Notes: generated by a model not told the origin, from the letters alone. A stretch of 59,828 nt of DNA, filler included, from 4 parts of 4 records of this genome joined end to end with filler, not necessarily neighbours in it, one strand, 5' to 3'. Counted from the first letter of the whole stretch, positions 30,708-59,804 are shown. Program-made: numbers and translations.

Positions 30708-30708
30708 T

Positions 30709-34041: not shown

Positions 34042-34069
34042 AAATCTGTTGGCGATTTAGAACAGAGAC

Positions 34070-36046: not shown

Positions 36047-36213
36047 AATGGTGACTCCACTGCTAATGCAACGCTAGCGATCATCATACCGGTCGCGCTG
36101 CTCAATGATCTTATTTGGAATAATTTTTTGCGAGCAAACACAATTCTCGCATTCTTAAAACGGCTATAAACGCAGCACTATGTTGTTGAACTCAAAGCGC
36201 GCAATTTATGTAA

Positions 36214-36238
36214 CACCGCGGCACAATGTGCCACGGTG
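36214..36238. repeat. Intercistronic hairpin after tctC
   Basis: CACCGCGGCAC-AAT-GTGCCACGGTG. Confidence 0.5.
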
Positions 36239-36251
36239 CGCGTTTAAATGA

Positions 36252-37208: not shown

Positions 37209-37289
37209 GTTAGTTCCTCCCAAACTATTTGATGAATTGGCATTTTTAGTTGACCGCTCGCAGGCTGCCAGACCTGAAGTGGCTAGTAT

Positions 37290-39225: not shown

Positions 39226-39228
39226 GGA

Positions 39229-40413
39229 TTACGCTGACCTGTAGAGTTTAGTCATTGAGAATTCACGATGACCAAGTGTTTCAGCAGCTGTTGTTCTGCC
39301 ATTTGCAGTGCGGACGATCATTTCAATGAGTGCATCGCCTGCTTGCTCGATTGTCTGTTCGCGGGTCAATACGCCCGTAACGTCCAAATCGATGTGCTCA
39401 GACATTGTGCGTAATGTACGCGGATTGCCGGAGATCTTGATAACCGGCACGATTGGGTTACCAACAACATTGCCCTGACCCGTTGGAAATGTGTGGATCA
39501 CATAACCACCAGCTGCCATCAAAGTTACGCATTCAGCCGCAGCTGATGAGGAATCCATGAAGTAAAGGCCTGGGCCTTTGGCAGGTGTTTCAGCAGGTCC
39601 CATTGCATCGATGTAAGTTGATTTCTTACCGATTTTCTCAAGGTTGCCGAGTGCTTTTTCTTCGATCGTTGTCAGACCGCCCAAAATATTACCTTTGGTT
39701 GGCTGGCTGTCAGAAAGGTCATCAGTCTGGTGCGCGAAAATCACATCGTCCTGATAGGCTTTCCAGATTTCTTTGAACTTTGCAGCAGCTTCAGGGTTTG
39801 CAGCACGTTTTTCACAAATGTGCTCGGCGCCCGTGATCTCAGATGTTTCACCGAAACAGCCGTAAATGCCATGCGGCAACAATTTGTCATACATGTTGCC
39901 AACTGTTGGACATGAAGACAGACCTGTTGTCGTATCGCTTTCACCGCATTTTGTAGAAATCCACAAATCAGAAATAGGGCATTCTTCTTTTTGAAGCTCT
40001 GTTGCCCACTGAACGTATTCTTTGGCTTTCCAGCTGGCTTGGCGGATCGTTTCCAAATCGCCTTTTTGCTCAATTGAAATGCCCGTTACAGGCTTACCAG
40101 TCGCCGCAATGCCATCAACGATAACTTGCGTCCATTCAGGCTCAATACCGATCACAACAACAGCGGCAACGTTAGGGTTTGCACCCGTGCCAATGATTGT
40201 GCGGAAGTGCAAATCCAAATCTTCGCCGAACTGAAGACGACCATAGGCGTGCGGAATTGCCAGCGTGCCTTTGACATTGTTTGCAACAGCTTCACAGGCG
40301 GCGTTAGAAATATCGTCAACCGGTAGGATGAGGACATGGTTACGAACGCCAACGCGGCCATTTTCACGGCGCCATGCATTCACCGTTAGAGTGCTTAAAT
40401 CTTTTTCCATCAT
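39229..40413 (-). CDS. suyB: (2R)-sulfolactate sulfo-lyase beta subunit (UxaA family)
   Basis: [51 protein letters not shown] coupling to suyA. Confidence 0.88.
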
Positions 40414-40700
40414 TACCACCGTTTGGTTTTGCAATTTTGTGTGTGAACGTGCGTGCCGGTTTTCGCGTCACCGATCATTTTGCCGATGTCTTCGCCGTAT
40501 TTCAAAACGGTGTCGCCTGCAGACAAGTCTTTCAAAGCGACCTTATGGCCGATTGGAATGTCCTGAAGAACCGTCAGCTTAAAATCCGAATTGTCTTCGG
40601 TCACAACGCAAAGCATCTCCGTGCCTGCAGTGAGGCCTTCGACCACAACGACGCCGACACTATCGACGCGGTCGTGGACCAATAAATGAGGTTTACTCAA
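40413..40700 (-). CDS. suyA: (2R)-sulfolactate sulfo-lyase alpha subunit (SAF domain)
   Basis: [44 protein letters not shown] start, RBS GGGAG. Confidence 0.88.
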
Positions 40701-40757
40701 ATTACTTCTCCCAGTTTGTAGCTAAAATTAAATCCGATAATCCGAGCTAACAGATAC

Positions 40758-40779
40758 TTAGATCTTATACAAGATATAA
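40758..40779. promoter_or_regulatory. Putative GntR/HutC-family operator
   Basis: Imperfect palindrome TTAG-ATCTTATACAAGAT-ATAA upstream of suyA; half-site TTATATCTTAT near 40974. Confidence 0.6.
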
Positions 40780-41049
40780 TTTGAAAAGTTTCTCAAAGTT
40801 TTCTATTTGTTGCACAACAGAAAATTGAGAGGGGAGACTGATCAAGAGGCGAAGTGGAACAAAGCTATTGAAAAATCTGAGAAAAAGTCAGATTTTGGAC
40901 CCCGTGCAATTATGCTCAGGTTCGCTTTATAGGTGTTATTAATATTAAATTTGCAATCTGTATGATTTATAAATTATATCTATTACCCACTAAAGTGACT
41001 CATTGAGTCAGTTTGTAGAATTCCTCGTTGCTGATCGGGTCGAATATTT

Positions 41050-41802
41050 ATGGATCAAAAACAAACACTACTGACAGCCCAACCACTTTATAAGCGTGCA
41101 GAACAATTGATGATTGAGCGCATCGTTGATCGTGAATGGTTGCCCGGTGAATTATTGCCAAACGAATTTGTGTTGGCAGAGCAATTTGGTGTCAGCCAAG
41201 GCACCATTAGAAAATCACTTATGTCGTTAGAAAAACGCGGTTTGCTTGTTCGAAGCCCTGGCCGCGGGACGATGGTATCACGCACGACACCAGAAGAGGC
41301 ACTATTCAACTTCTTTAGGATCCGCAGCGCCGATGGTTCAATGGTTGTGCCTTTGACGCATCACGAAACGATCAAACGCAGAAAAGCAACGGCTGAAGAA
41401 AAATCTGTACTCCTGCCTAAAAGCGATGAAGTCTATGAACTGTTTCGCATTCGCAAAAGCGATGACCGGCTATTTGTCATGGAAACAATGCGTTTTAGTA
41501 CAACGCTGTGCGAAGGTATTGAAAATGATTTGCCTCTTCCAGCCTCACTGTATCCATACCTAAATCAAAGGTTCGGAATAACAGTGATGTCCGTGAAGGA
41601 ATCAATTGAGGCAGATGTTGCTGATGAAAGCATCGCTAAAAATCTAAAGATAGAAATTGGCACGCCGGTGCTGAAAGTCACGCGCCGTGCTTTTGATTTA
41701 GCAAACAGGGTGGTTGAGATTAGGCAGAGTATCTATCTGACCGGCTTTGCATCTTACCAAATAGACTTAGTGCGCGCAGAAACCGGCAAAACGCAATTCT
41801 AG
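41050..41802 (+). CDS. GntR family regulator (HutC/UTRA subfamily)
   Basis: PGELLPNE..LA..FGVSQGTIRK wHTH, PGRGT, UTRA domain. Confidence 0.92.
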   Translation: MDQKQTLLTAQPLYKRAEQLMIERIVDREWLPGELLPNEFVLAEQFGVSQGTIRKSLMSLEKRGLLVRSPGRGTMVSRTTPEEALFNFFRIRSADGSMVVPLTHHETIKRRKATAEEKSVLLPKSDEVYELFRIRKSDDRLFVMETMRFSTTLCEGIENDLPLPASLYPYLNQRFGITVMSVKESIEADVADESIAKNLKIEIGTPVLKVTRRAFDLANRVVEIRQSIYLTGFASYQIDLVRAETGKTQF

Positions 41803-41827
41803 CCGATGCTTCAATGAAAAAGGCTTG

Positions 41828-43078
41828 CTAAGAGGCAGGGTTCTGCAAATTACGCTGATGCCTGTCCTCAAGCGCAACGCAGCCCCAAACAATGCCGAGC
41901 AATAGATAGAAATGACGCCAATGGTCGGTGTCAATGATGTTGCCTAGAAGCAAATGGCCAAAGAACACAATATAGGCGCACAGCAGCATGGGCTGCCAAG
42001 GACGGTTGCGAAATAGAATTTTAAGGCCCGCACCAAGCGTCCAAATCACCAATGTGACATAGGCCGCAAAACCGAGCCACGAATAATCAAGCAGTGCTTT
42101 GAGCCAAATATTATGGGTGTCTTCGCCATAGATCAGGCCAAACTGCAAAATGCCGATACCAAATGGTTTTTCCATCGCCAATTGATAGCCGATGAGATGG
42201 CGAGCAAAACGCCCTAAGCGCGCACCGTCATAATCTTGGATAAGCCGTGCACGATTCAAAAACACATCTCGGACGGAATCAAATTGCAGCGCCACTATCA
42301 AAATCAAAGCAAAAGCGATCAGCGCACAAATGGATAAAACGAAAATACGCAAACGAAATGCGTTAGATCGATTATTAATCAAAAGGGCTAAAACCAGCAT
42401 AAATCCACTTAGTATCAACAGGCCCCATCCACCGCGCGAGAACGATAAAAATATAGCTGCGCCGAGGATCAGCAAAGCGAAAATTTGCGGAATGACACGT
42501 TGAAAGGGCTTTGTCAGCAGTTCATGAAGGCAATAAATCGCAGGCAAAATAAGGAAAGGAGCGAAAACATTGGGGTCCTGAAATGCACCTTTCGCGCGGC
42601 CAAAGCGCGTGAACACTTCTGCCCCGGGCAGTGCATTGAAATAACCCAAAATACCCAAAATGCTAGTTATGACAGCTGCAAATAAATAGCCGGAAAAAAT
42701 CAATCGAAGGCGTTCAGGCCTATCTGCAACAACCGCCGCAAAGAAAATCGCTGTAAAGCCCAGAAAGAACGATACCGCCACATAGATGAGGCCATCGCGC
42801 CAATCTGGCATCACCATCATCGAGATGATTCCACCGACATTGAATAAGATAATGAAAATGATCAGCGGGGCGATTGATTTGGGGATTTTCAATCCTAGCA
42901 AAACCCAAATGCCGATCAGGAGCGCCATAAACAATTCATAGGGCGCAGGCTCATTGATCACAAAGCCGGAAAGAAACGCACCAAACCAGATAGCAAAGCC
43001 GCCAAAGATTGCCGCTAAAGCGCGGTTCTTATTGGCGATCTGATTGCCGTATTGGGTATGGTGCGCAAAGTCGGTCAA
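41828..43078 (-). CDS. O-antigen ligase/Wzy family protein (UppF-like)
   Basis: RAKGAFQDPNVF, LSFSRGGW, DTHN, DTDHWRH; about 12 TMs. Confidence 0.85.
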   Translation of the reverse strand: MTDFAHHTQYGNQIANKNRALAAIFGGFAIWFGAFLSGFVINEPAPYELFMALLIGIWVLLGLKIPKSIAPLIIFIILFNVGGIISMMVMPDWRDGLIYVAVSFFLGFTAIFFAAVVADRPERLRLIFSGYLFAAVITSILGILGYFNALPGAEVFTRFGRAKGAFQDPNVFAPFLILPAIYCLHELLTKPFQRVIPQIFALLILGAAIFLSFSRGGWGLLILSGFMLVLALLINNRSNAFRLRIFVLSICALIAFALILIVALQFDSVRDVFLNRARLIQDYDGARLGRFARHLIGYQLAMEKPFGIGILQFGLIYGEDTHNIWLKALLDYSWLGFAAYVTLVIWTLGAGLKILFRNRPWQPMLLCAYIVFFGHLLLGNIIDTDHWRHFYLLLGIVWGCVALEDRHQRNLQNPAS

Positions 43079-44628
43079 TAGGCATTATCCGATTTAGTGA
43101 CGAGGCTAATAGGGGTCATCAAGAGGATTTTTAAATCCAGCCATAAAGACCAGTTCTCAATATAGTAAAGGTCGTATTCTGTGCGGAATTTAATCTTGTC
43201 GTCATTGTCGATTTCGCCGCGCCAGCCATTAATCTGCGCCCAGCCCGTGACACCTGGTTTAACGCGGTGGCGCGCAAAGTAACCATCGACCACTTCGCCA
43301 TAAAGTTTGTCGCGCGTTTGCGCATGGATGGCATGGGGGCGAGGGCCTACGAGTGAAAGATCGCCCCGCAAAGCGTTGAAAAATTGAGGCAATTCATCTA
43401 TAGATGTTTTGCGAATAAAGCGGCCAACGGGCGTAACCCGTGGATCGCCTTTCGTCACAGCATTGCGTGCTGTCTTATCTTCTTGATCGATATACATTGA
43501 ACGAAATTTGAAAACGCGGATGATTTCATTGTTAAAACCATGGCGCTCTTGAACAAATATGGCCGGACCTTTGGACGTCAGCTTTACTGCTAAATAGGCT
43601 CCCAGCATGATCGGCGACAAAATCATTATGCCGAGCAGGGAGAAAAAGATGTCAAAGGCGCGTTTAGCCACTGAATCCCAGTCTCGAATTGGGCGGTCAA
43701 ATATATCAAACATCGGAATGTTACCGATATAGGAATAGGTACGCGGCCGAAAGCGCAAATTATTGGAATGCGCGGAAAGTCGAATGTCCACAGGCAGTAT
43801 CCATAGTTTTTTGAGCATCGCTAGAACGCGGTTTTCCGCATCGAGCGGCAGGCAAACAATTAACATTGAGATATGGGCGCGGCGCGAGAATTCTACCAAT
43901 TCTTCGACATCGCCAAGCTTTGGATAGCCAGCAACCATCGGCGGCGAACGGACATCGTCGCGGTCATCAAATATCCCACAAATACGAATATCATTATCGG
44001 CTTCGCGCTCGATGCCGCGGATCAATTGTTCTGCGGCTTTACCGCCACCCACGATAACAGCACGGCGTTCCATGGTGCCGTCATGGGCCCAGCGCCGCAC
44101 GCGCGCGTTCAGCAATAGCCGCGTGAAGAACAGCAATACCAAGCCACCTAAGAACCAAAGGCCAAACCAAACGCGTGAAAACTCTTCTGACATTTTCAGA
44201 AAGAAAATGCAGATGAGAATAAGCGCCATTGTTGCACCCCATGCGAGAAAGATGCGTGGAAAATATTTAATGGAATGGCGAATAGACCTGATCTGATAGC
44301 CGTCCATAATGTGAGCACCAATCATATAAATGAAGGCACCGGCACCGCTGACAACAACGTATCGCCACGGCATATCGTCTAGATTGGAAAAGTTGATGGT
44401 CACATATCCAACAAGCGCTGAAATACCGATAAGGAATAATGATAAAAATTCAGCCAAGCGCAGTAAGCCCGAAACCATTGCGGGTGAGATTGTGTCCGTT
44501 CGGTATTCAGCAGCAATCCTTGCGGCTAAATCATTTAGCCGACCCTTCTTAACCGTAAGCTCTTCTCCATCATCGAACGCGGTAACATTTGTGCGGGAAA
44601 AGCGTTTTCTTGGGTCAAAATCATCCAT
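43075..44628 (-). CDS. Undecaprenyl-phosphate glucose phosphotransferase (UppE/WcaJ-like)
   Basis: KRAFDI, KFRSM, DPRVTPVGRFIRKTSIDELPQ, SLVGPRP, VKPGVTGWAQ. Confidence 0.93.
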   Translation of the reverse strand: MDDFDPRKRFSRTNVTAFDDGEELTVKKGRLNDLAARIAAEYRTDTISPAMVSGLLRLAEFLSLFLIGISALVGYVTINFSNLDDMPWRYVVVSGAGAFIYMIGAHIMDGYQIRSIRHSIKYFPRIFLAWGATMALILICIFFLKMSEEFSRVWFGLWFLGGLVLLFFTRLLLNARVRRWAHDGTMERRAVIVGGGKAAEQLIRGIEREADNDIRICGIFDDRDDVRSPPMVAGYPKLGDVEELVEFSRRAHISMLIVCLPLDAENRVLAMLKKLWILPVDIRLSAHSNNLRFRPRTYSYIGNIPMFDIFDRPIRDWDSVAKRAFDIFFSLLGIMILSPIMLGAYLAVKLTSKGPAIFVQERHGFNNEIIRVFKFRSMYIDQEDKTARNAVTKGDPRVTPVGRFIRKTSIDELPQFFNALRGDLSLVGPRPHAIHAQTRDKLYGEVVDGYFARHRVKPGVTGWAQINGWRGEIDNDDKIKFRTEYDLYYIENWSLWLDLKILLMTPISLVTKSDNAY

Positions 44629-45157
44629 TTATTTTTACCCGCGTTTCTATCGCATCATTGTAAGTTTCAATCATTGAGCTAGCCATTGCTGAAATAGAAA
44701 ATTTCCTTTGAAGTCTTTTAAGGTCGGGCATTCGGTTGCGTAGCTCTTCCGGATTTTCTAACGCTAGGCGCATCCGTGCGGTTAGCAGGTCAATGTTCGG
44801 ATCAATAAGAACATCACGCGCATTGCCGAAAATTTCTGGAATACCGCCGACATTTGTTGCCACGAGCGATTTGCCTGCGCCAAGCGCTTCGAGCACAATA
44901 TAGGGCATTGCTTCCGCGCGCGATGGCATGACGACTGTTTTACCAAGCTTGAACGCGCCGCGGGCAGGCATGGCAGCGCGCATGGTTACGTTGGTGCGCA
45001 GGCCGCGTTCAACGATCAGCGCGTGAAGCTCATCGCGATAGTCGCCGTCGCCAACGATAACGGCGCTGATATTCTGTGCGCCTTCAGCTTTAAGCCGCGA
45101 AATTGCACGAACAAGCAGATCTGGACCTTTTAGTTCGCGCAATTCGCCGATGAATAC
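44621..45157 (-). CDS. GT4 glycosyltransferase (UppD-like), 5' partial
   Basis: GELRELKG, PSRAEAMPYIVLEA, TNVGGIPE; open to the contig end. Confidence 0.88.
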   Translation of the reverse strand, partial: VFIGELRELKGPDLLVRAISRLKAEGAQNISAVIVGDGDYRDELHALIVERGLRTNVTMRAAMPARGAFKLGKTVVMPSRAEAMPYIVLEALGAGKSLVATNVGGIPEIFGNARDVLIDPNIDLLTARMRLALENPEELRNRMPDLKRLQRKFSISAMASSMIETYNDAIETRVKING

Positions 45158-45257
45158 NNNNNNNNNNNNNNNNNNNNNNNNNNNNNNNNNNNNNNNNNNN
45201 NTTAATTAATTAANNNNNNNNNNNNNNNNNNNNNNNNNNNNNNNNNNNNNNNNNNNN
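45158..45257. other. Artificial contig linker
   Basis: N44-TTAATTAATTAA-N44. Confidence 0.98.
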
Positions 45258-45547
45258 ACCCACCCACCCACCCACCCACGCACGCACTTCACACACACGC
45301 ACGCACGCACGCACCCATGCACACGTGCACTCACCTCCTTGTTGGTTCTTTCGCGCAGCTGCCAAGTTCCAAGAAGGCATCTGTGCAGGGGAAGGCAGGC
45401 GACCGGGAAGCCGTCAGCAGCAGCAGCAGCAGCAACAAGACTGATCTTCACTCTCGCGGCGTTGTTGCTTCGAGTCTCGCGACGACTGTGGCAGAAGCAA
45501 GACGTGTGTGTGTGTGTGGGGTGGGGGGTGGGGGGTGGGGGGGGGGG
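45258..45547. repeat. Eukaryotic simple-repeat zone
   Basis: (ACCC)n, (CA)n and (GCAC)n at the contig start; (CAG)6 at 45415-45432; (GT)n plus G-runs at 45504-45547. Confidence 0.9.
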
Positions 45548-45828
45548 AAAGCAGAACTTGCGTCTGCCGGAGTGGCGGGTTTTTGGCAATAGAACTGGAC
45601 GGAGAAGGCAAAAGAGTGCAGCTCAAACCACCCCTGCGGGACCACGCACAATCGTTGTTGAGGCGCCACTAACACTAGTGCTTTCGACGCATTGTATGCC
45701 ACCACCATCACGGTGGCACGGCTCGAAAAAAAAAAAAAGAGATTCAATAGTCTTTCACTGCAGCACTCCTCTCCTCACTCACCCTTGCCAACTTGAACCA
45801 CAAAGGTACACAAGCTCTTCTTTCAAAA

Positions 45829-46505
45829 ATGCTCCAAGCCATCCGCACCACAGCTCGCCAGTCTGCTCTTGCACTGCAGCGGTCAGCCATTCGTGCCCAC
45901 CGAGGCGTCCATACCGAAAAGGTGATGGCGGAAAAAGGAATCGTTCTGCCCCCTTTTCAGCCAGCAGTTTGGTCGTACGTCAAGTGCCAGCGCGATGGCA
46001 ACACACTTCACATTGGGGACCATGTTGGCCAGGACGAGGACAACGTCACCGTGCGTGGAAAGGTCGGTGAGGGCGAAGGATTAGTTTCACCCGAGCAAGC
46101 GACCGAGCTTTCGGCACAGGCAGCACTTCGCATGCTTTCAACTTTGTCTGACTACCTCGACGGGGACCTGGATCGGGTGGAACAAGTAATCAAGGTTGGT
46201 TGTGCCAGCTATACTTGTCTAGCGTGCTTTTGTGGACACAGTTTTGTCGCTTGCGTTTCTGCCTCGTGGTTGACTTTGCTTTGACGCTGATGGGTTCGTG
46301 AATGTTCTTGCGTGCATGATCAAAGGTGACCGGGTTCGTCAACGGCGTTCCGGACTTTATTGGCCACGGAAAGGTTGTGGATGGGTGCTCCAACATGCTC
46401 GTCGAAGTTCTCGGTGACCGTGGCAAGCACGCACGTTCATGCGTTGGCACAGGATCCCTCCCAGCAGCTGTGTCCATGGAGATGAGTGTCCGAGTCCGAG
46501 ATTAA
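45829..46505 (+). CDS. RidA/YjgF family protein, two exons (45829-46194, 46326-46505), 181 aa, mitochondrial-type presequence
   Basis: Exon 1 ends DLDRVEQVIK. After a GT..AG intron the frame continues VTGFVNGVPDF...GKHARSCVGTGSLP...RVRD*, restoring the family motif KVTGFVN. Confidence 0.88.
46195..46325 (+). other. Spliceosomal intron (131 nt, phase 0)
   Basis: AAG|GTTGGT...TTGAC/CTGAT...ATCAAAG|GTG; contains an in-frame stop. Confidence 0.85.
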
Positions 46506-46698
46506 TTTAAACTTTGAAAAGCAAATAGAATTTGCGGCGCTGCTGCTCCTTCAACCGAGAGGAGTGGAGTACGTTTAGCACGGCAACCAAGCTGCTTGGG
46601 CAGTGCGCCTCAGAACTTCTGCAAAGCATACTGTGGTTCTTCTAACTAGTTTTATTTTTCAACCAAAACGTTTCTATCTTGCCAAAAAGTATGCTTGT

Positions 46699-48573
46699 TC
46701 ATGGGCGAGGGAAATCACATCCTGCGGCTGACGCCACTTTGCCGCCCACAACAGTGCGTGTTGCACCAGTGCACGAGGGCGCAAAGTTGGCGTAGCCGTT
46801 GCGGCAGAGGAAGCCAAAAATGGCATACATTGCATTCTCCCACGTCTCTTCTTCGAGCCCAATGTCGTCGAGGGTGCGGATCGTGAGGCCGTTCACGTCT
46901 TCATTCAATTGGTCGGCGAGGTGGGCTCGCAACCGCTCCATCCAGAACTTGTTGTTGGTGACTCCACCACGCACCACCACGTCGTGCAGAGGGCGGTCGA
47001 CCACGTGCTCACCGCCGAAGCGACGGCAGGCAACAACAATTTGTTTTGTCGAATGGTCTGTAAGGGTAGCAAGGAAGTCTTCTTTGGACAAACCGAGCTC
47101 GTCAATCGCGCGAGTGCGCCATTTGCGGAACAGCTCTTGCGGGAAGTCATCAGGACCCACTCCGATCGGCAGCTCGGTCTGTTTGTAGTAGCGCCACTGC
47201 ATCATCTCCTCCACAAGTCCTTCGTGGATCTTGCCTGACCGCGCAATGCGCCCTTCGTCGTCATAGGGCAGGGTTGGGTCAATATCAGCGGTTGCAAGGT
47301 CCATGAAGAAGACGCCAAGCCCTGGATCCAGCCCGTGCGGGAGGGTGGATGCCTGGGGCCCTGCCCGTGGCGGGCAAAACGTCACACTAGAGGTTCCACC
47401 GACGTTAATGGCAACTCGCCAGGCGTCCTCGGTCTCCTGTCCGTCAGGGCGGAGCATGACGCTGTCGTAGGTGCACGTGCACGGCGTGCCGTTGCCGCCA
47501 GCGGCCACGTCGGCTGGTCGGAAATCTCCAGCCGTTGTGATGCCTGTGTTGACGGCAATGACCGACAAGTCGCCCAGCTCCCAGTGCGGGTGTCCAGAAA
47601 TAGTCTGCCCGTGGGATCCAATGAGGTCCACGGACGATTTGTCCACGCCAGCCTCCTCGAGGAGGCGTTCCACACGATCGGCGAACATGCGGCCCAGGCG
47701 GTAGTTGGCCAGTGCATAGTCGTTGCCGTCTTCGCAGCGCAGAGCGCGCAGTTTCAACACGAATGCACGCTCTTCCTCGGTAAAACTGTAGGTCTTGTTC
47801 GCAAGCGTCTTGTACGACAATCGGCCAGCGAGCTTGTTCAAGTCCAACTTTGCATCGCCTTCGTCGAGAAGGCCGTCCTTGAGGGTGATGTCGAAGATTC
47901 CCACGTCAATACCATCCACAGCGTTGCCGGATTGGAGGCCCACGACCCGCATGTTCAGATCATTGTTGCCTCCTTCACGGGCGGCAGCTGCCGCCTCGGC
48001 TTCCTCGCGCGTGCACTTCAGGACGGTTGTTGCGCGATCGCGGGCTGCATCCAAATATGTCACCACTTCAGAGTAGCGCGATTTCACGAACGCAGTTCGG
48101 CTGGCAACGTTGTCAACATGCACGGTCGTGTAAATTTCCTCGATTTTGCCTCCCGCAACTTCAGGGCTGAAGATGCCGTCTGCAGGGTCGACGGAGGCCT
48201 GGGTGAGCTTGGCTCCGATGCGGTGCCCACGCACGTCAGGGTGCACCACAAACTCGTGAATGAAGGCGCCCTTTCCTTCGGCTCCAGTGCCGTTGATCTG
48301 GTGCCAGTACTCGCTCCCAACTCCTGCCGAGATGAAGCCCACAAGTTCGTCCTGAAGGAAAGCTCCCCAGACGACTGTTTCGCCCGTGGGGAGCTTGCCC
48401 AGGTGTTCTCGCACTGGTTCGTCCGGGATAAAATTGTGTGGAGTGGAGCCGTGGGTTTTGTTGAATTCAAAGAGCGTGTCCACGCAGAAACTGGGGGGAA
48501 GGCGCTTGCAAACCACCTCCTTCGCGGCGGCAGCGGCGCTTCCACTGAACGCTCTGCGAAGAATAGTTGCCAT
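46699..48573 (-). CDS. GNAT acetyltransferase fused to an anhydro-N-acetylmuramate/levoglucosan kinase family domain (624 aa)
   Basis: GNAT motif A IHEFVVHPDVRGHRIGAKL. Kinase motifs VVGLQSGNAVDGID, IGSHGQT, GDFRPADVAAGGNG, INVGG, YDDEGRIARSG, PSCTGA. Confidence 0.85.
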   Translation of the reverse strand: MATILRRAFSGSAAAAAKEVVCKRLPPSFCVDTLFEFNKTHGSTPHNFIPDEPVREHLGKLPTGETVVWGAFLQDELVGFISAGVGSEYWHQINGTGAEGKGAFIHEFVVHPDVRGHRIGAKLTQASVDPADGIFSPEVAGGKIEEIYTTVHVDNVASRTAFVKSRYSEVVTYLDAARDRATTVLKCTREEAEAAAAAREGGNNDLNMRVVGLQSGNAVDGIDVGIFDITLKDGLLDEGDAKLDLNKLAGRLSYKTLANKTYSFTEEERAFVLKLRALRCEDGNDYALANYRLGRMFADRVERLLEEAGVDKSSVDLIGSHGQTISGHPHWELGDLSVIAVNTGITTAGDFRPADVAAGGNGTPCTCTYDSVMLRPDGQETEDAWRVAINVGGTSSVTFCPPRAGPQASTLPHGLDPGLGVFFMDLATADIDPTLPYDDEGRIARSGKIHEGLVEEMMQWRYYKQTELPIGVGPDDFPQELFRKWRTRAIDELGLSKEDFLATLTDHSTKQIVVACRRFGGEHVVDRPLHDVVVRGGVTNNKFWMERLRAHLADQLNEDVNGLTIRTLDDIGLEEETWENAMYAIFGFLCRNGYANFAPSCTGATRTVVGGKVASAAGCDFPRP

Positions 48574-50461
48574 GATGTGGGTCTTTTTTTGGTTTGCTCT
48601 TCTTCTGTTCCTTCGTTTGCTTGCGACCGAGAAGACCAAGCCAAAACACACAAAAAAAGAAGCTCTGACTTGGAGAAAAGTGAGAAATATTAGCACACGC
48701 CCTTGCCGTTGGATATTACAATGTTACACTCCAACCTCGATGCCAGTGACAACGGCGTTTGAGTTTCAGGCTGGAAGTTACTTGCCAAGGTTTGTAGTGT
48801 GTGTGCAGGGAAAGCAATAAAGTGTTGTGTGCTGTGTGTTGTGCCGAGGGTGCGCGTGTGCGCTTTGAGTGTGCTTTGCGTGTGCGTTGTGTTCGGATGC
48901 GCGTGTGAGCCAGCAGCAGGTTTCGAGCCCCACCTTCCTAGTTTCCCCAAACCAGCCAGCCACCCACCCACCCACCCACTCCTCCCTCCCACTCCCCAAC
49001 TCTCGAGCCAAAGTCTGCGAGTGCGCGCGTCACAAAGAAACAAAACGGAAAAGGCGAGCTCCAAACCGAGGGACGGGAAGGGAAGGGAAGGGAAGGGGGT
49101 GGTCGCTGCTGCAGGACAAAGCTCGCAACTCACTCCCACGCACTTACTCACTCACTCGCTCGCTCGTGCCCTGGCGCCACAGCAAGAAGCCAGTCCTCGA
49201 GAAAAACTCAGAACTCGCCTGCTCCTCACCAATCGCTTGGAGACCCAGACTCACGACGGTTGCGCTCGCCAGGGTTGGAGCTTACGCTCACACCAACAGT
49301 GACATTTCGACGCTCCGCTTGCAACTTTTCGTAACCCGTTCAAAACGCACAGTTTATAGTGAGTTAGTGGGGAGAACTGACAGATTGTGAGCGCAGTCAC
49401 TCGGAAATATGTTTGCAGCCGCGAGCCGACACCGAAGAAGGCACCGAGGTGCCCGGCTACGGTGTGTCGTTTCAGTTGTTAGGCCCAAGAAAGACCCGGC
49501 CACTCCGTAAAGAACTTTTGAGAAAAACGCCGAGCGATGGCCACGGACTGGCCGCGGAACGAGCAGCCCGCCACCCGCAGTCTGAGGGGCCTTTTGTAGG
49601 TAGACGGTACCGTAACGGCTGAGACCCGAGAACAACAGAGGGGCTGGGCGGGGAAGCGTAGAACGATACTATTTGGGAATTGTAGGAAAGTGGGGGAAAC
49701 GCCTCGAAACGATTCGCGGTGTGCGGGCGGGTGAGCGACAGGGCTTGGCGAAGCGGCTTTGCAGATAGTTTAGTGGGCATGGACGGGATAGTACATATGT
49801 GTACTACAATACCCGAAAAACGGTCGAGGAAAGGTTGTCTGGTCATTCTGGCCGACCTCCTGGCTTTTGCTCTTTCAAACCGGGTATACTAAGCTCCACA
49901 CTAGCTCCCACATCATCCACTTTTTTTCGTTAATTTACAAGTAAAGCTGCTTCCTCAATTACATTCAACTTTGCGTATTTTCAGCCTTGAGACACGTAAA
50001 CAGAATGTGTAAAATATGCACTAAAGTGTTCCCTATTCGAATGGCCCGAGTGCGGTTCAGAGCGGGAGCCTGAAGCTTCCGGAAGAGAGCCGGACGAATT
50101 GCCGCTGCTCACCCCCCACGTCACTACCGCCCAAACAAAAGCTGAAAACGCGATTTTGATAAGCAATATCAACCAATACTATGCGTTTTCAAGGATAAAA
50201 CAGCCACAATTAGCTAGAAAACCTATAAATACGACACCGATCCCCGCGAGGGACGTGGAAAACCACCAACCGTTGCAGGAAAGCGTCCCTGAAGTGTGAT
50301 TTTACCGAAATCACCTCAAAGTCGCGTAGGCGCAGGCAGTTGTGTCGGTATAAAAGTGATTGTACTGGTCCAGTCTGCATCCCCCCTTTTCCTTTGTCTC
50401 CCCTTGTTCGACCCTTTGGAGTATCAACCGCACGCACTTTGTCTGCCTGGCCGACGTGGGT

Positions 50462-50489
50462 GTGAGTGAGGGAGTGAGTGAGTGAGTGA
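50462..50489. repeat. (GTGA)n microsatellite at contig end
   Basis: GTGAGTGAGGGAGTGAGTGAGTGAGTGA. Confidence 0.85.
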
Positions 50490-50589
50490 NNNNNNNNNNN
50501 NNNNNNNNNNNNNNNNNNNNNNNNNNNNNNNNNTTAATTAATTAANNNNNNNNNNNNNNNNNNNNNNNNNNNNNNNNNNNNNNNNNNNN
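50490..50589. other. Artificial contig linker
   Basis: N44-TTAATTAATTAA-N44. Confidence 0.98.
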
Positions 50590-50826
50590 ATCAACGAAGC
50601 CTTCGCCATGGTGGCGATGCTGCCGATGATCGATCTGGGCATCCCCCACGACAAGCTGAACATCCACGGCGGCGCCTGTGCCCTGGGCCACCCGATCGGT
50701 TCCACCGGCTCGCGCATCATCCTGACGCTGATTCATGCACTCAAACGCACCGGCGGCAAACGCGGCGTGGCCAGCCTGTGTATCGGCGGCGGCGAAGCCA
50801 CCGCGGTGGCCATCGAGCTGCTGTAA
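50590..50826 (+). CDS. Acetyl-CoA C-acyltransferase (thiolase), C-terminal fragment
   Basis: INEAFA, NIHGGACALGHPIG, SLCIGGG. Confidence 0.95.
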   Translation: MNEAFAMVAMLPMIDLGIPHDKLNIHGGACALGHPIGSTGSRIILTLIHALKRTGGKRGVASLCIGGGEATAVAIELL

Positions 50827-51029
50827 AAAACGCCGCGTCGTCAGGCAGCGCCCCACAGACCGGGCCACGGAGCTCCTACAGCGGCTCCGTGGCACCCTTG
50901 ATGAGAAGGTGATCAGCGTGCGGATGTGCCAGCGGTAATATCCCGTTGCAACTCCGGCGGCGGCATTGATACGCAAACGCTATCCTGGGGCCTAGAATTG
51001 ACCGATTAGTCATCATTCTAGGGAGTACC

Positions 51030-52832
51030 ATGTCCGCCCTGCCCGTCATTACCGCCGTGGGCGGCATCAACGCCGCCGGCCGTACCTCCATGCACCACGG
51101 CTTCCGCCGCATGGTGTTCGAAGCGCTGGATGCCCACCGACAACAACAGACTCTGGACAGCCTGTCCGCGCTCACCGGCCTGAGCGACCGCCAGCAACTG
51201 CTGAACGCCACCTTGATCCGTGAACTGCCGGAAGCGGTGCGCATCACCATGGCGAGCAACGGCCATAGCGACGCGCCGGTGACTCTGGAGATGCGCAACC
51301 TTGATCTGCCCCACCCCTTGCCGGAGGGCTGGCAAGTCACCGAGCTGAACCGGCATCGCAGCCGGGTCACCGTGCCCGCCGGGGCCGAACTGCGCGCGCC
51401 GGCGGCCATCACCCGGCGGGTCAGCGCCGCCGGCCAACTGCCCAGCGGTTTCGATCCCGCCACTCTGTACGCTTCACGCAACCACCCCCGTGCCTTGCAG
51501 ATGGCCATTTACGGTGTCAGTGACGCCTTTGGCATGCTCGGTATTCCCTGGGATCAGTTGCGTGGCCGGCTGGCACCGGACGAGGTCGCGGTGTTCGCCT
51601 CCAATGCCATGGCGCAACTGGACGACCATGGTCTCGGCGGCATGATGCGCGCTCCGTCGCTGGGCCAACGCACCACCTCCAAACAATGCCCGCTGGGCCT
51701 CGGCGAGATGACCGCCGATTTCATCAACGCCTATGTGCTGCGCAGCCCTGGTGGTACCGGTGGCATGCTCGGCGCCTGTGCCACTTTCCTCTACAACCTG
51801 GAAAGAGCCGTGCACGCGATCCGCAACGGCCGTGCCCGGCTGGTGGTGGTGGGCACCAGTGAAGCGCCGCTGGTACCGGAAGTGCTGGAAGGCTACCGTG
51901 CCATGGGCGCGCTCGCCGAGGATGAAGCCCTGGCGGCCCTGGACGGCACCAAACAGGCCGACCTGCGCCGCGCCTGCCGGCCGTTCTCGGACAACTGCGG
52001 TTTCACCATGGCGGAGTCCGCCCAGTTCGCGGTGGTGATGGACGACAGCCTGGCGCTGGAGTTGGGCGCGGACATTCTGGCGTCGGTACCGGACGTCTTC
52101 GTCCACGCCGATGGCGCCAAGAAATCCATTTCCTCGCCGGGCATCGGCAATTACCTGACCCTCGGCCGCGCCGCTTCCCTGGTCCGTCAACTGCTGGGCG
52201 AGGATGCCCTGCGCAACAACAGTGTGGTGCACGCCCATGGCACCGGCACGCCGCAGAACCGGGTCACCGAATCCCATGTCCTCAACGAAGTCGCCAAGGC
52301 CTTCCACATCAGCGACTGGCCGGTGGCCGCGATCAAAGCCTACGTGGGCCATTCCCTGGGCAGCGCCGGTGGTGATCAACTGGCTTCCGCGGCGGGAACT
52401 TTCCAGGATGGCTTACTGCCGGGGATCGCCACGGTGGACCATTTCGCCGCCGATCTGCATGACAGCAATCTGTCGTTCTCCCGCGAGCACCGGGAGATGC
52501 GGCCCTCGGCGGCGCTGCTCAACTCGAAAGGGTTCGGCGGTAACAACGCCACCGCGGTGATGTTGTCCCCGGACGCCACCCTGGACCTGCTGCGCCGCCG
52601 CCATGGCCAAAGCACGCTGGACAGTTGGCGGGACCGGGTGGCCGACACCCGCGAAGCCGCCGCCGACTACGAACGACGAGCCCTGGCTGGCGAAACCGCG
52701 CCGGATTACTACTTCAACGACGGCGTCCTCAGTGGCGACGACCTGAGCATCACCGACCAGTCCATCCGTCTGCCCGGCTGGGATCAGGCGCTGACCTTCC
52801 GCGACGACCCGGGCTTCGACGACTACCGCTAA
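51030..52832 (+). CDS. fabY: Beta-ketoacyl-ACP synthase, FabY type
   Basis: LPVI..GGINAAGR, HPRALQM, GACATFLYNL, AHGTGTPQNRVTES, KAYVGHS, NSKGFGGNN. Confidence 0.85.
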   Translation: MSALPVITAVGGINAAGRTSMHHGFRRMVFEALDAHRQQQTLDSLSALTGLSDRQQLLNATLIRELPEAVRITMASNGHSDAPVTLEMRNLDLPHPLPEGWQVTELNRHRSRVTVPAGAELRAPAAITRRVSAAGQLPSGFDPATLYASRNHPRALQMAIYGVSDAFGMLGIPWDQLRGRLAPDEVAVFASNAMAQLDDHGLGGMMRAPSLGQRTTSKQCPLGLGEMTADFINAYVLRSPGGTGGMLGACATFLYNLERAVHAIRNGRARLVVVGTSEAPLVPEVLEGYRAMGALAEDEALAALDGTKQADLRRACRPFSDNCGFTMAESAQFAVVMDDSLALELGADILASVPDVFVHADGAKKSISSPGIGNYLTLGRAASLVRQLLGEDALRNNSVVHAHGTGTPQNRVTESHVLNEVAKAFHISDWPVAAIKAYVGHSLGSAGGDQLASAAGTFQDGLLPGIATVDHFAADLHDSNLSFSREHREMRPSAALLNSKGFGGNNATAVMLSPDATLDLLRRRHGQSTLDSWRDRVADTREAAADYERRALAGETAPDYYFNDGVLSGDDLSITDQSIRLPGWDQALTFRDDPGFDDYR

Positions 52833-52850
52833 GGACAGCAGATCGCTCCC

Positions 52851-52873
52851 GCCCGCCGGACCCTCCGGCGGGC
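52851..52873 (+). terminator. Hairpin downstream of fabY
   Basis: GCCCGCCGGA-CCC-TCCGGCGGGC. Confidence 0.55.
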
Positions 52874-52995
52874 TCAATTCTAAAGTTTGGTAAAATCTGC
52901 GGAACCCGGTCCGCAAAATGGGCGAGGGCCTGCTTCGCTGCGTTACCGTGGGGTGCACGGATGTTCCCTCACAATAAGCAGAGAAGGAGTTCTCC

Positions 52996-55434
52996 ATGGC
53001 CGCCTCACGTTCCCGCGATATTCTGCTCTTCCTGATCGGCGCCGTCGTCGCCCTGTTCGGTGTTGCCTTCACCATCGAGGGCGGTTGGCTGGTGTCGGTG
53101 GGTGGCACCTGGTATTACCTGCTGGCCGGCCTCGCCATGATCGTCTCCGGTTTGTTGCTGATCACCGGGCGCCGGGCCGGCGTCGGCATTTACGTTCTGG
53201 TGTTCATTGGCACCCTGCTGTGGACGCTGTGGGAAGCCGGCGGCAACTACTGGGGCTGGATTCCGCGCATGGACGTGGTGATCGGGCTCGGTGTGGCGGT
53301 GGCCCTGGCTGCTCCCAGGTTGCGTAACGGCTTTGCCCCCGGTGCTTCTTATTCTGTCGCGGGGGCGCTGGTGGTGCTGATGGTGGTCGGCCTCGGGCTG
53401 GCGTTCGTGCCGTTCGGCGCGGTCAACCCCAAGCCGGTCCCCGGACCGGACAGTGCCCGACTGGCCACCGCGGTGGGCGACGCGCAACCGGCGGACAATC
53501 CGCACCCCGGCGACTGGCCCGCCTACGGCGGCGGCAATAGCGCGCAACGCTACTCATCGCTGGATCAAATCACCACCGACAACGTCGCCGGCCTGGAACG
53601 GGCCTGGGTCTATCGTACCGGCGATCTGCTGGACCGGCGCTGGGGCGCGGAGACCACACCGCTCAAAGTCGGCAACGACGTCTTTTTGTGTACCTCCCGC
53701 AACATCATTATTTCCCTGAACGCCGCCGATGGCCGGGAAAACTGGCGCTACGACCCCGAAGTATCCGAGGACGCCATTCCCTATACCGCCGCCTGCCGCG
53801 GAGTGACCTACTATCAGGTACCGGAAGAACGTCTGGCGACACTGCCTGGCGGCGCCGGAGACGGCAGTGGCCCGGCCTGCGCCCGCCGTATTTTTTCCGG
53901 CACCCTGGACGGTCGCATCGTCGCCGTGGACGCCGCCACCGGCGAACCCTGCCAGGATTTCGGTAACGGCGGCCAGGTGGATATCAAGGAAAACATGGGC
54001 GATACCCCGCCCGGCTATGTCTCGATCAATTCAGCGCCAGTGATCGTACGGGATGTGGTGATCACCGGGCACCAGGTACTGGATGGCCAGAAACGGGATG
54101 CGCCGTCCGGCGTGATCAAGGGATTCGATGCTCTCACCGGCGAACTGAAATGGGCCTGGGACGCCGGCCGGCCGGAGCAAAGCGAGCCCCTCAGCGGCGA
54201 CCGGATCTACACCCGTGGCTCGCCGAATATGTGGACCACGGCGGTGGGCGACAATGCTCTGGGTATGGTGTACCTGCCGATGGCCAACTCCGCCGCCGAT
54301 TACTGGAGCACACCGCGCAGCGAAGCGGAAAACAAATGGGCGGCGTCGCTGGTGGCGCTGGACGCCAGCACCGGTAAACCAGCCTGGCACTTTCAGGTCG
54401 CGCACAAGGACGTCTGGGATTATGACCTGGGTTCGCAACCCTCGTTGCTGGATTTCCCCACCAGCAAGGGACCGGTGCCAGCGATTCTGCTACCGACCAA
54501 GCAAGGCGAATTCTATGTGTTCGACCGGCGCACCGGCGAAGCGCTCACCGGTATCGAGGAAAGGCCGGTGCCCCAGGGCGGCGCCGAACCGGAGCAACGC
54601 AGCGCGACTCAGCCTTTCTCCACCTGGCACAGCCTGAAACAGCCCGACCTCACCGTGCATGACATGTGGGGGATGACGCCGTTCGACCAGATGTATTGCC
54701 GGGTGCAGTTCCACAAAGCTGACTACAGGGGCATGTACACGCCGCCCAACGCGGACCGCCCATGGATCGAGTTCACCGGCTACAACGGCGGCTCCGACTG
54801 GGGCAGCGTGGCGCTGGACCCGTCCCGCGGCGTGATGATCGCCAACTACAACATCACCCCCAATTACAATCGGCTGGTGCCACGGGAGCTGGCCAATCAA
54901 TACGGCTGGCTGCCACGCGGCGAGGGTGACGCCAAGGACCATGGCGACGCCGAGGGCGCCGGCGACCCGCAAGCGGGCACGCCCTATGCGATTGACGTGA
55001 ACGCGGGCTGGCGTGTGCCGTGGACCGGACTGTTGTGCAAACAGCCGCCCTACGGCGGTATCCGCGCCATCGACGTGACCACCGGCGAAACCTTGTGGGA
55101 CCGCCCGTTCGGTACCGCCCGCGCCAACGGCCCCTGGGGCATTCGCAGCGGTTTGCCGTTCACCATCGGTACGCCCAACAACGGGGGGCCGGTGGTCACC
55201 GCCGGCGGTCTGATCTTCATCGCCGCCGCCACCGACGATCTGATCCGAGCCATCGACATCACCACTGGTGAAACCATCTGGCAGGATGCCCTGCCCGCCG
55301 GCGGCCAGGCCACGCCCTTGGTGTACGAAGCGGACGGGCGGCAATATCTGATGATCGTCGCCACCGGCCATCATTTCATGGAAACACCAAGCGGCGATTA
55401 CGTCATCACCTACGCCCTGCCAAAACCCGACTGA
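52996..55434 (+). CDS. Membrane-bound PQQ-dependent dehydrogenase, glucose/quinate/shikimate family
   Basis: 5 N-terminal TMs, DWPAYGG, QRYSSLDQIT, ACRGVTY, HKDVWDYD, LPAGGQATP. Confidence 0.93.
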   Translation: MAASRSRDILLFLIGAVVALFGVAFTIEGGWLVSVGGTWYYLLAGLAMIVSGLLLITGRRAGVGIYVLVFIGTLLWTLWEAGGNYWGWIPRMDVVIGLGVAVALAAPRLRNGFAPGASYSVAGALVVLMVVGLGLAFVPFGAVNPKPVPGPDSARLATAVGDAQPADNPHPGDWPAYGGGNSAQRYSSLDQITTDNVAGLERAWVYRTGDLLDRRWGAETTPLKVGNDVFLCTSRNIIISLNAADGRENWRYDPEVSEDAIPYTAACRGVTYYQVPEERLATLPGGAGDGSGPACARRIFSGTLDGRIVAVDAATGEPCQDFGNGGQVDIKENMGDTPPGYVSINSAPVIVRDVVITGHQVLDGQKRDAPSGVIKGFDALTGELKWAWDAGRPEQSEPLSGDRIYTRGSPNMWTTAVGDNALGMVYLPMANSAADYWSTPRSEAENKWAASLVALDASTGKPAWHFQVAHKDVWDYDLGSQPSLLDFPTSKGPVPAILLPTKQGEFYVFDRRTGEALTGIEERPVPQGGAEPEQRSATQPFSTWHSLKQPDLTVHDMWGMTPFDQMYCRVQFHKADYRGMYTPPNADRPWIEFTGYNGGSDWGSVALDPSRGVMIANYNITPNYNRLVPRELANQYGWLPRGEGDAKDHGDAEGAGDPQAGTPYAIDVNAGWRVPWTGLLCKQPPYGGIRAIDVTTGETLWDRPFGTARANGPWGIRSGLPFTIGTPNNGGPVVTAGGLIFIAAATDDLIRAIDITTGETIWQDALPAGGQATPLVYEADGRQYLMIVATGHHFMETPSGDYVITYALPKPD

Positions 55435-55447
55435 CCCCGGGGATCGG

Positions 55448-55468
55448 GAGCCCCCGGGCCGGGGGCTC
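55448..55468. terminator. Inverted repeat between convergent genes
   Basis: GAGCCCCCGG-G-CCGGGGGCTC. Confidence 0.5.
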
Positions 55469-55480
55469 TCCCGTGCGAAT

Positions 55481-58081: not shown

Positions 58082-58335
58082 TATTATTCTCCGTTTTCAG
58101 TCCCGGCCGGTGCCGGGCCTTTCCCGATTGTTATCCCAACGGAGGCGAAAACACTGTTGGCTGGCGGTTACCGGAGCGTTAACCAAACCGTCATTTTTTT
58201 CACAACATGTACGAAGGTGCCATTATCCCTTGCACTGTCGAATGGCGCCGTCCGCCTTGACCCGCCGCCACCCTCCCCGCGAATATCAGCGGTCGGCCCC
58301 GCTCCGGCTGCTCCCTACTTGCGACAGGACACACT

Positions 58336-59778: not shown

Positions 59779-59804
59779 AAAAACCGGTGGAGCCGCCCGC
59801 CGCT

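Follow-up and report, generated by a model that had tools for sequence, protein, structure and literature searches.

The stretch of DNA analysed here (the window; 59,828 nt, filler included) carries at 46699..48573, on the minus strand, an open reading frame (ORF) in which a GNAT acetyltransferase domain is joined to a divergent kinase domain of the AnmK/levoglucosan kinase (LGK) fold. On sequence grounds, the kinase domain, which has a private GNAT joined to it, represents a third branch, so far uncharacterised, of the anhydro-sugar-kinase fold. We favour, with about equal measures of confidence and doubt, the view that the fusion is an ATP- and acetyl-CoA-using enzyme of an uncharacterised unusual-amino-acid pathway and not an enzyme of cell-wall salvage. 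The features of the gene are as follows.

46699..48573, minus strand: coding sequence of the GNAT-AnmK-like fusion (624 aa; ATG at 48573; stop codon 46699-46701; no intron).
48517..48573, minus strand: N-terminal extension, aa 1-19 (MATILRRAFSGSAAAAAKE), basic and Ala/Ser-rich, with a predicted local distance difference test score (pLDDT) <50 for aa 1-17.
48010..48516, minus strand: GNAT acetyltransferase domain, ~aa 20-188 (Pfam Acetyltransf_1, strands and helices of the AlphaFold2 (AF2) model, Foldseek).
47959..48009, minus strand: linker, aa 189-205 (EEAEAAAAAREGGNN...), a helix in the AF2 model.
46729..47958, minus strand: divergent AnmK/LGK-fold (ASKHA) domain, aa 206-615 (Pfam, Foldseek, tree).
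47326..47328, minus strand: codon of Asp416, counterpart of the general base (Asp212 in LGK, Asp182 in Pseudomonas aeruginosa AnmK, PaAnmK).
46837..46839, minus strand: codon of Glu579, presumed Mg2+ ligand and counterpart of PaAnmK Glu326.

The arrangement proposed in a first-pass annotation of this DNA, a GNAT domain, a linker and a complete AnmK fold in one protein, was recovered by Pfam, AF2 and Foldseek, which agree. Pfam AnmK (PF03702) matched aa 208-613 (E 4.3e-43, 148.2 bits against a cut-off of 24). The AF2 model, for which 26 family sequences were the input, had a mean pLDDT of 80.5 and a predicted template-modelling score of 0.67, and was weak at aa 1-17, 238-241, 354-363 and 614-624. 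When the model was compared with solved structures using Foldseek, the C-terminal two thirds matched levoglucosan kinase (4zxz and 4zlu; target template-modelling (TM) score 0.79-0.80, 24-25% identity) and AnmK (3qbx and 3cqy; target TM 0.86-0.87, 22-24% identity). The presence of a GNAT fold was confirmed by matches of the N-terminal third to generic GNATs (5icw, 7kx3 and 2i79; target TM ~0.68) and by an Acetyltransf_1 match above cut-off (aa 51-129, E 1.6e-7, 32 bits against 20.7). As the nearest structures to this domain are generic (Naa60, SpeG and unnamed GNATs), no substrate class was drawn from the fold, and none of the GNAT-specific NCBIfam models matched the window protein. The Protein Atlas gave only GNAT-TsaD fusions, at 0.83, which is under the evidence level, and these were not used.

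The pyrophosphate loop of GNATs, motif A, has the canonical form R/Q-x-x-G-x-G/A. The corresponding segment of the window protein is R115-G-H-R-I-G120, with Arg at the fourth position. Across the family G120 never varies and R115 and G116 hardly do, while the canonical Gly is found in the bacterial-type members and in some of the eukaryote-type members.

The motif changes listed in the first-pass annotation were all found in the window protein, namely QSGNAVDG (214-221), GGNGTPC (359-365), NVGGTSS (390-396), LDPGLGV (415-421), IGVGPD (470-475) and RGGV (535-538). Conservation was assessed by comparing 26 family members, 43-81% identical to the window protein, with the eight nearest bacterial AnmK, a small reference set. 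Because the changes are invariant or nearly so in the 26 members, chance or drift was rejected as their cause. The retention of the catalytic Asp also held, as D416 aligns with LGK Asp212 and is invariant in 34/34 aligned sequences. E579 is likewise invariant in 34/34 and, mapped by motif position, is presumed to be the counterpart of the PaAnmK Mg2+ ligand Glu326. The glycine-rich ASKHA motifs are kept. In total, 63 positions are conserved and identical in the family and in AnmK, including S215-G216, D220, D223, SHGQ 320-323, F351-R352, D355, G360/G362/P364, N390-G392-G393, D416-G418-G420, D425, G536-G537, N541, E579 and T602-G603-A604. A further 19 positions set the two groups apart, each group having its own conserved residue there (AnmK residue first: T>N217, S>A218, H>G327, L>W331, Q>E332, Q>N361, L>C365, Q>I389, N>S396, A>G414, F>L415, T>P417, N>V421, G>P433, K>I470, A>G520, K>W578, F>Y583 and A>G587).

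The substrate pocket was read from alignments and motif positions alone, and the remodelling that had been claimed for it was seen in both of the elements that gate the AnmK site. The hairpin that follows SHGQT is 4-12 residues shorter than in AnmK and carries an invariant GHPHWE, and the gating loop PKTTGRE of AnmK is replaced by LPIGVGPDDF, in each case by alignment and not by superposition. In the ATP loop, the AnmK sequence SGTS has become SGNA in 26/26 family members with the Asp kept (D220), and by motif numbering A218 would correspond to PaAnmK Ser12. According to the available part of the PaAnmK study (PMC10570956), loop 8-14 binds the ATP phosphates via Ser12 and Asp14, Asp182 is the general base that activates water, Glu326 holds Mg2+, and loop 229-241 and hairpin 96-110 are the gates of the site for 1,6-anhydro-N-acetylmuramic acid (anhMurNAc). 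Our reading of the alignments is that the phosphoryl-transfer machinery would be intact and the substrate gate rebuilt.

A word-index protein search was used to define the family, with counts taken from the 120 listed matches. Among these, 67 are family proteins, 41-99% identical to the window protein, while from the 68th match onward identity is <=37%, the match is to the kinase part only and the proteins are ordinary bacterial AnmK. None of the 14 NCBIfam AnmK equivalog models reached its cut-off with the window protein, the best being NF007148 (213.5 bits against 387). A quick maximum-likelihood tree of the kinase part was built from 42 rows (30 from the fused family and 12 AnmK), two of the 44 chosen rows having been dropped. 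All 30 fused-family rows formed one clade with a Shimodaira-Hasegawa-like approximate likelihood ratio test support of 100, separated from the 12 AnmK by a branch of 1.26. Within it the 24 eukaryote-type rows formed a clade (100), in which the window protein pairs with P0002. The protein of dinoflagellate TGD (P0050, 1043 aa) fell outside this main eukaryote clade, grouping with the bacterial-type members P0055 and P0058 (97), and its domain order is the reverse of that in Triparma. This grouping suggests a separate acquisition, so P0050 may represent a second transfer or a contaminant.

The named members include proteins from four Triparma species or forms (Bolidophyceae), a MAST-4 stramenopile, dinoflagellate TGD and Polykrikos. 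Shorter members that lack the N-terminal extension were found in Moorena cyanobacteria and in one metagenome-assembled genome (MAG) of the Nannocystaceae. In bacteria the family is rare. Of 401 Myxococcota genomes searched, one contained the fusion, and this was the source MAG itself. The viral contigs searched contained no relative of the fusion. When the GNAT domain was searched alone, 66 cluster representatives among 1.84 billion were found at E<=0.001 and 16 at E<=1e-30, and the matches were mostly fragments of the GNAT-AnmK family itself, which makes for a very narrow GNAT subfamily. Transfer of the gene between bacteria and marine protists has taken place once at the least, and probably on two occasions. 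One locus of very low G+C content (GC; L004, 0.33) contains a member 60% identical to the window protein, so that the hosts of the family span very different base compositions (0.33-0.72).

The claim that the architecture is undescribed stood for the literature searched, which largely excluded subscription journals and in which no description of it was found. It did not stand for the sequence databases, where GNAT-AnmK proteins, for example those of Triparma and Moorena, are already public and, where the sources give them a name, are called 'anhydro-N-acetylmuramic acid kinase' or 'GNAT family N-acetyltransferase'. In plankton surveys such AnmK and GNAT names could be mistaken for a sign of peptidoglycan recycling.

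The family is linked to pyridoxal phosphate (PLP) enzymes of fold type II, both by fusion and by gene neighbourhood. A PLP domain of this type (PALP, PF00291) is part of the protein in 6/67 of the listed family matches (P0007, P0016, P0029, P0030, P0050 and P0064). The order is PALP-GNAT-AnmK in Triparma and GNAT-AnmK-PALP in the dinoflagellate, and the two ThrC-like PALP domains are 40% identical over 463 aa (E ~4e-81). The fused domains are thus orthologous, and the same partner has been fused twice, at opposite ends. The PLP lysine of the fused PALP aligned with that of a ThrC-type protein. In bacteria the family of this domain is very large (7911/8000 scored candidates at E<=1e-20), with source names that include 'threonine synthase', 'threonine dehydratase', 'pyridoxal-phosphate dependent enzyme' and 'PLP-dependent lyase/thiolase'. 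Among 17 matches to the GNAT domain that were scanned with Pfam, three combined PALP and GNAT with no AnmK match and one was GNAT-AnmK. In P0310 (899 aa), GNAT stretches are followed by PALP and Pfam finds no AnmK domain, while P0322 and P0329 have PALP then GNAT with no AnmK match and are possibly truncated. The private GNAT is also found in tandem, as GNAT-GNAT in P0309 (387 aa) and as GNAT-GNAT-PALP in P0310.

Neighbouring genes were surveyed in 22 metagenome loci, the window contig and the Nannocystaceae locus L001, with short contigs. A ThrC-like or ThrC-type PALP lies upstream in 4/10 loci with >=1.5 kb of upstream sequence, namely L005 (fused), L009, L011 and L020. In L011 (330-6270) the fusion is the last gene of a five-gene operon, preceded by genes for an EutA-like protein (arylmalonate decarboxylase family), SbnA (TIGR03945, 399.2 bits against a cut-off of 349.95), SbnB (TIGR03944, 395.6 bits against 326.9) and a ThrC-type protein (TIGR00260, 195 bits against 167). 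The GC of L011 is 0.39 and its fusion protein is sister to that of Moorena (support 99), so this locus is probably cyanobacterial. Its make-up resembles that of a small gene cluster for diamino-acid biosynthesis. After the fusion, at ~6850-7510 of L011, there is a toxin-antitoxin remnant by the look of the ORF translations alone.

The eukaryote-type locus L020 has, in this order and within 4.9 kb, the end of a ThrC-like PALP gene, a frame for an SbnA-like protein joined to a flavin adenine dinucleotide (FAD) oxidase, and the fusion gene. The middle frame (510-3428, minus strand) is 973 aa long from stop to stop and combines a CysK/SbnA-like PALP with an FAD-dependent amine oxidase. A single-protein counterpart of SbnA plus SbnB may be encoded here and, as predicted from the sequences, the functions in L020 match those in L011 with the FAD oxidase replacing SbnB. 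The only gene recognised next to the fusion in L016 encodes a DadA-like oxidase (D-amino-acid dehydrogenase). The fusion gene of the myxobacterial MAG (G002) is found at a contig end, and the only PF03702 match in this MAG is the GNAT-fused one. Another contig of this genome (C74; L026 7786-11587) carries in a row genes for a CysK-like PALP of 567 aa with a long N-terminal extension, a protein orthologous to the PALP fused in eukaryotes (35-37% identity) and a CN-hydrolase that is aguB-like but below cut-off. Two large ORFs without a family match follow the CN-hydrolase. Among the closest described systems is the SbnA/SbnB module that forms 2,3-diaminopropionate for staphyloferrin B, together with the ThrC-family enzymes. 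L011 resembles it in having SbnA, SbnB and ThrC-type genes with a family member, and L020 in having the SbnA-like-oxidase fusion beside one, while the window contig differs in carrying no SbnA, SbnB or ThrC-type gene. No Sbn-type cluster with a GNAT-AnmK-like gene was described in the literature searched.

The only other gene found on the contig that carries the window fusion (45258-50489) is a YjgF/RidA-like gene. The two genes are convergent, with their 3' ends 193 bp apart.

45829..46194, plus strand: exon 1 of the YjgF/RidA-like gene (tblastn with the L003 and L021 orthologues; start ATG at 45829 inferred).
46195..46325, plus strand: intron of 131 nt, GT..AG (break in homology, skipped in the contig of run X1).
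46326..46505, plus strand: exon 2, including the stop codon (tblastn and sequence).

When the two metagenome orthologues were used in tblastn, homology stopped at 46194 and restarted at 46326, with 57-92% identity per exon. A contig of run X1 (2828 nt) spans 45726-46191, omits 131 nt (GT..AG) and continues over 46323-48660, where it has no differences from the window and no joint, and is colinear with the whole fusion ORF. Run X1 has the same organism code as the DNA run X2, from which the window probably derives, and its RNA label is a guess. As a contig of run X2 (45552-48464) retains the intron of the YjgF/RidA-like gene, the pattern is that expected of spliced mRNA. The spliced neighbour and the colinear contig bear out the earlier description of the contig as eukaryotic and of the ORF as intron-free. 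Transcriptome-derived orthologues (a Triparma CAMPEP entry and that of dinoflagellate TGD) likewise have the fusion in one ORF. In our reading the fusion ORF is a genuine nuclear gene of a marine protist, expressed and free of introns. A prokaryote-style call would begin the ORF at a GTG at 48696 and give 665 aa. The X1 contig ends 87 nt upstream of the ATG at 48573, and this GTG is therefore outside it.

A convergent YjgF/RidA-like gene was found downstream of the fusion in 3/7 loci with >=800 bp of downstream sequence, namely the window (GC 0.55), L003 (GC 0.54; fusion 79% identical to that of the window) and L021 (GC 0.63; a more distant fusion, 51% identical). The L021 orthologue matched PF14588 (YjgF_endoribonc; 38.4 bits against a cut-off of 35) and that of L003 matched PF01042 (Ribonuc_L-PSP; 29.0 bits against 27.3), while exon 1 of the window copy, taken alone, had no Pfam match.

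The possibility of organelle targeting raised in the first-pass annotation is consistent with the N-termini of the family. The extensions are 8-62 aa long, basic and Ser/Thr/Ala-rich in eukaryote-type members and only 0-7 aa in bacterial-type members, and the RidA-like neighbour protein has an extension similar to that of the fusion. This suggests a mitochondrial location, and aa 1-19 of the window protein may be a mitochondrial-type presequence.

The differences from the two known kinases of this fold can now be set out. AnmK (EC 2.7.1.170; P. aeruginosa 3QBW/3QBX and 8BRE-8C0U) shares with the family its Pfam family and fold, the general-base Asp, the Mg2+-binding Glu and the elements SHGQT, DFR..D, GG.G.P, N.GG, D.G.G and GG...N. 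The family is nevertheless only 22-24% identical to AnmK chains (Foldseek), misses all of the NCBIfam AnmK cut-offs, has SGNA for SGTS, a shorter gating hairpin and a replaced KTTGRE loop, is fused to a GNAT, has PLP enzymes and not MurQ as partners, and sits on a long separate branch of the tree. Thus, as far as can be judged from sequence, it would use the AnmK/LGK machinery yet fails the tests of AnmK proper in its curated cut-offs, gating elements and genomic association. The levoglucosan kinase of Lipomyces starkeyi (4ZLU, 4YH5 and 4ZXZ) is also a eukaryotic protein, is the best solved-structure match by sequence (E 3.8e-33 for 4zxz), is top by Foldseek E-value and has Asp212 at the position of D416. 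It differs in being 24-25% identical and without a GNAT, and has GLNSGTS, GRQGAPL, NIGGIAN, FDTGPG and KT(T/C)GRE where the family has motifs of its own. The available part of one source gives AnmK and LGK as the pair of anhydrosaccharide kinases whose mechanisms have been studied (PMC10570956). A kept catalytic core, a rebuilt gate, a fused GNAT and the partnership with PLP enzymes together point to what is probably a third activity of the fold.

In the pathway that we favour, the kinase-fold domain would still use ATP, on a substrate other than anhMurNAc or levoglucosan, and the fusion would work with ThrC-like and CysK/SbnA-like fold-type-II PLP enzymes and a YjgF/RidA-type imine/enamine deaminase. 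The pathway would be one for an unusual amino acid, for which the most plausible candidates are a beta-substituted alanine and a 2,3-diaminopropionate-type compound. PLP enzymes of the ThrC, SbnA and CysK types act on amino acids with a side-chain hydroxyl that has been activated as a phosphate or acetate ester. A kinase and an acetyltransferase beside them fit this logic of ester activation, whether they form the ester or modify an amine product. The kinase-fold domain may accordingly make or consume a phosphate ester of the PLP-enzyme pathway, and the GNAT may acetylate the amino group of an intermediate or product. RidA-type proteins hydrolyse reactive enamines and imines released by PLP and FAD enzymes, and the RidA-like protein would here clear such by-products. 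In eukaryotes the pathway would probably be mitochondrial. SbnA and SbnB act on phosphoserine and glutamate to form 2,3-diaminopropionate, and the occurrence of SbnA with SbnB, or with an oxidase, would point to chemistry of this type. As the fusions have arisen repeatedly, they single out three or four enzymes whose joint reconstitution would be a clear test, and they would exemplify the transfer of a multi-gene metabolic module between bacteria and eukaryotes.

A bolder version of this pathway, which we regard as distinctly doubtful, can also be put forward. In it the AnmK-fold domain has moved off sugars and, with the GNAT, forms the ATP- and acetyl-CoA-dependent core of an undescribed diamino-acid pathway. 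The kinase and GNAT would make an O-phospho or O-acetyl ester for the ThrC-like and SbnA/CysK-like enzymes and then acetylate the amine product, and horizontal transfer would have spread the pathway among marine cyanobacteria, a myxobacterium, stramenopiles and dinoflagellates. If true, this might give eukaryotic plankton the route to free 2,3-diaminopropionate-type amino acids that has been missing. In the part of the source available (PMC9414260), 2,3-diaminopropionate is given as a putative precursor of beta-N-methylamino-L-alanine, which is produced by cyanobacteria, diatoms and dinoflagellates, and SbnA/SbnB are reported from only a limited subset of cyanobacteria, the route to 2,3-diaminopropionate being missing in most.

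Several observations weigh against the amino-acid pathway. The context sample is small and drawn from short metagenome contigs, and eukaryotic neighbours can be due to chance. Four loci (L001, L002, L019 and L022) had no informative neighbour; in the Nannocystaceae locus L001, for example, the fusion is at a contig end and the upstream 10 kb contains a sigma factor, CHAT and TSP3. The FAD oxidases of L016 and L020 are unrelated to each other, and the L011 ThrC-type gene shows no more than distant similarity to the PALP fused in eukaryotes (E 0.01 and 1e-4), a domain whose family is, moreover, very large in bacteria. In G002 the fusion and the PALP pair are on different contigs, and a YjgF-like gene was not found there with the query used. 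The window GNAT has Arg in motif A in place of the canonical Gly. The shared SHGQT, DFR..D, GG.G.P and D.G.G may be elements of a sugar site, which leaves room for a sugar-like or anhydro-sugar substrate. Finally, the label of run X1 as RNA is only a guess, and its contig is not proof of a single transcript.

The substrate proposed in the first-pass annotation was an anhydro-amino sugar. On this account the kinase domain opens and 6-phosphorylates a 1,6-anhydro amino sugar, either a de-N-acetylated muropeptide sugar or anhydro-glucosamine, and the GNAT then N-acetylates it, as GNA1 does with glucosamine-6-phosphate, in the salvage of bacterial cell-wall fragments. Some family hosts are bacterivorous, MAST-4 among them. 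The general-base Asp, the Mg2+-binding Glu and the 63 conserved positions are kept, and LGK leads the matches in sequence and in Foldseek E-value, with AnmK higher in target TM. Canonical anmK genes are also known in other eukaryotes (ticks, rotifers and anaerobic ciliates), and these resemble the window gene in being bacterial-type AnmK-family genes in a eukaryotic genome. From what is available of a tick preprint (10.64898/2026.03.13.711553), the tick anmK is expressed, 'eukaryotised' and still acts on anhMurNAc, GNAT and anmK are separate tick genes from two separate transfers, and its authors knew of no earlier report of anmK transfer into eukaryotes. The accessible part of a ciliate study (PMC13198582) has anmK accompanied by murQ and NamZ in anaerobic species. 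These are ordinary AnmK, whereas the window protein is fused to a GNAT and its kinase domain belongs to a different clade.

The surroundings of the family do not favour this account. No MurQ, NagZ, NamZ or AmpD-type gene was seen with Pfam in the chosen flank ORFs of 11 loci and in the window flanks, which were scanned without a directed search for them. The recurring partners are instead PLP amino-acid enzymes. The earlier statement that AnmK is normally stand-alone needs a qualification, as AnmK fused to MurQ-type domains was found in P0103, P0105 and P0110, and these fusions are confined to the canonical AnmK matches. In addition, both anhMurNAc gates and the ATP-loop Ser are replaced, the AnmK equivalog models are all below cut-off, and the hosts of the family include a phototroph (Triparma) as well as cyanobacteria, where it adjoins SbnA/SbnB. 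Salvage of an anhydro-amino sugar is thus unlikely, though it keeps some weight because the conserved core could still bind a pyranose.

A substrate that is a hybrid of sugar and amino acid (for example glucosaminate or a conjugate), with the kinase acting on the sugar part and the PLP, FAD and RidA proteins on the amino-acid part, would reconcile a conserved sugar-kinase core with these partners, and the DadA-like gene in L016 and an Asp/Glu-racemase-superfamily gene in L011 are in keeping with it. It is rather unlikely in our view, being pure inference; we know of no pathway with such a gene set, and the SbnA and SbnB of L011 score above curated cut-offs for enzymes whose chemistry is not on sugars.

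Alternatively, the fusion might serve in detoxification or self-resistance by acetylating and phosphorylating a toxic amine-bearing metabolite. An acetyltransferase joined to a kinase is the logic of known bifunctional resistance enzymes, and AAC(6')-APH(2''), like the window protein, has a GNAT and a kinase in one polypeptide. Moorena and the Nannocystaceae are rich in natural products, and the fusion is the final gene of the biosynthetic-looking L011 operon. The kinase of AAC(6')-APH(2'') is, however, of the protein-kinase-like APH fold and not ASKHA, and that resistance enzyme has no PLP partners. In several lineages the GNAT is fused directly to a PLP enzyme, which speaks for a step in a pathway over a bystander role, and the family is strongly conserved across many protists. 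A resistance role therefore seems quite improbable.

We consider it very unlikely that the kinase-fold domain is catalytically dead and acts as a binding or scaffold module for the GNAT or the PLP enzyme. It has Ala at the position of the phosphate-contacting Ser of PaAnmK and Asn for the neighbouring Thr, and the GG-N-G loop (aa 354-363) is of low confidence in the AF2 model, but conservation of D416, E579, D220, D223, NxGG and GG...N in both the family and AnmK would be unexpected in a dead enzyme. That the gene is an artefact, from a chimeric assembly or a mis-joined ORF, has next to no chance: although the window joins unrelated contigs, the joins fall at N spacers outside the fusion gene, the ORF is covered by independent contigs from runs X1 and X2, and dozens of orthologues from other sources have the identical architecture. 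Assembly chimera was rejected on these grounds.

The window consists of four contigs joined by three identical spacers of N44 + 12 nt + N44 (30608-30707, 45158-45257 and 50490-50589).

1-30607: contig 1, GC 0.571, bacterial-type with dense long ORFs.
30708-45157: contig 2, GC 0.485, bacterial-type with dense long ORFs.
45258-50489: contig 3 (5232 bp), GC 0.554, eukaryotic; carries the fusion gene.
50590-59828: contig 4, GC 0.646, bacterial-type with dense long ORFs.

Since the contigs are concatenated, the true surroundings of the fusion gene are only 45258-50489. With three bacterial contigs beside a single eukaryotic one, the assembly is mixed, being either a bin or derived from a culture that contained bacteria. 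Contig 3 has long non-coding stretches and simple repeats at both ends. Repeats at or near the ends lie at 45258-45330, 45500-45580, 48945-49165 and 50456-50489 (GTGGGTGG, CACACA, poly-C/G and CACTCACT). Run contigs pile up on the end repeats at very high depth with many false joints, which is probably why contig 3 stops there. On the flanking bacterial contigs, an exopolysaccharide sugar transferase with a glycosyltransferase (43075-45142, minus strand) and a ketosynthase-like protein (51030-52832, plus strand) were recognised by eye from their translations, and have no bearing on the finding.

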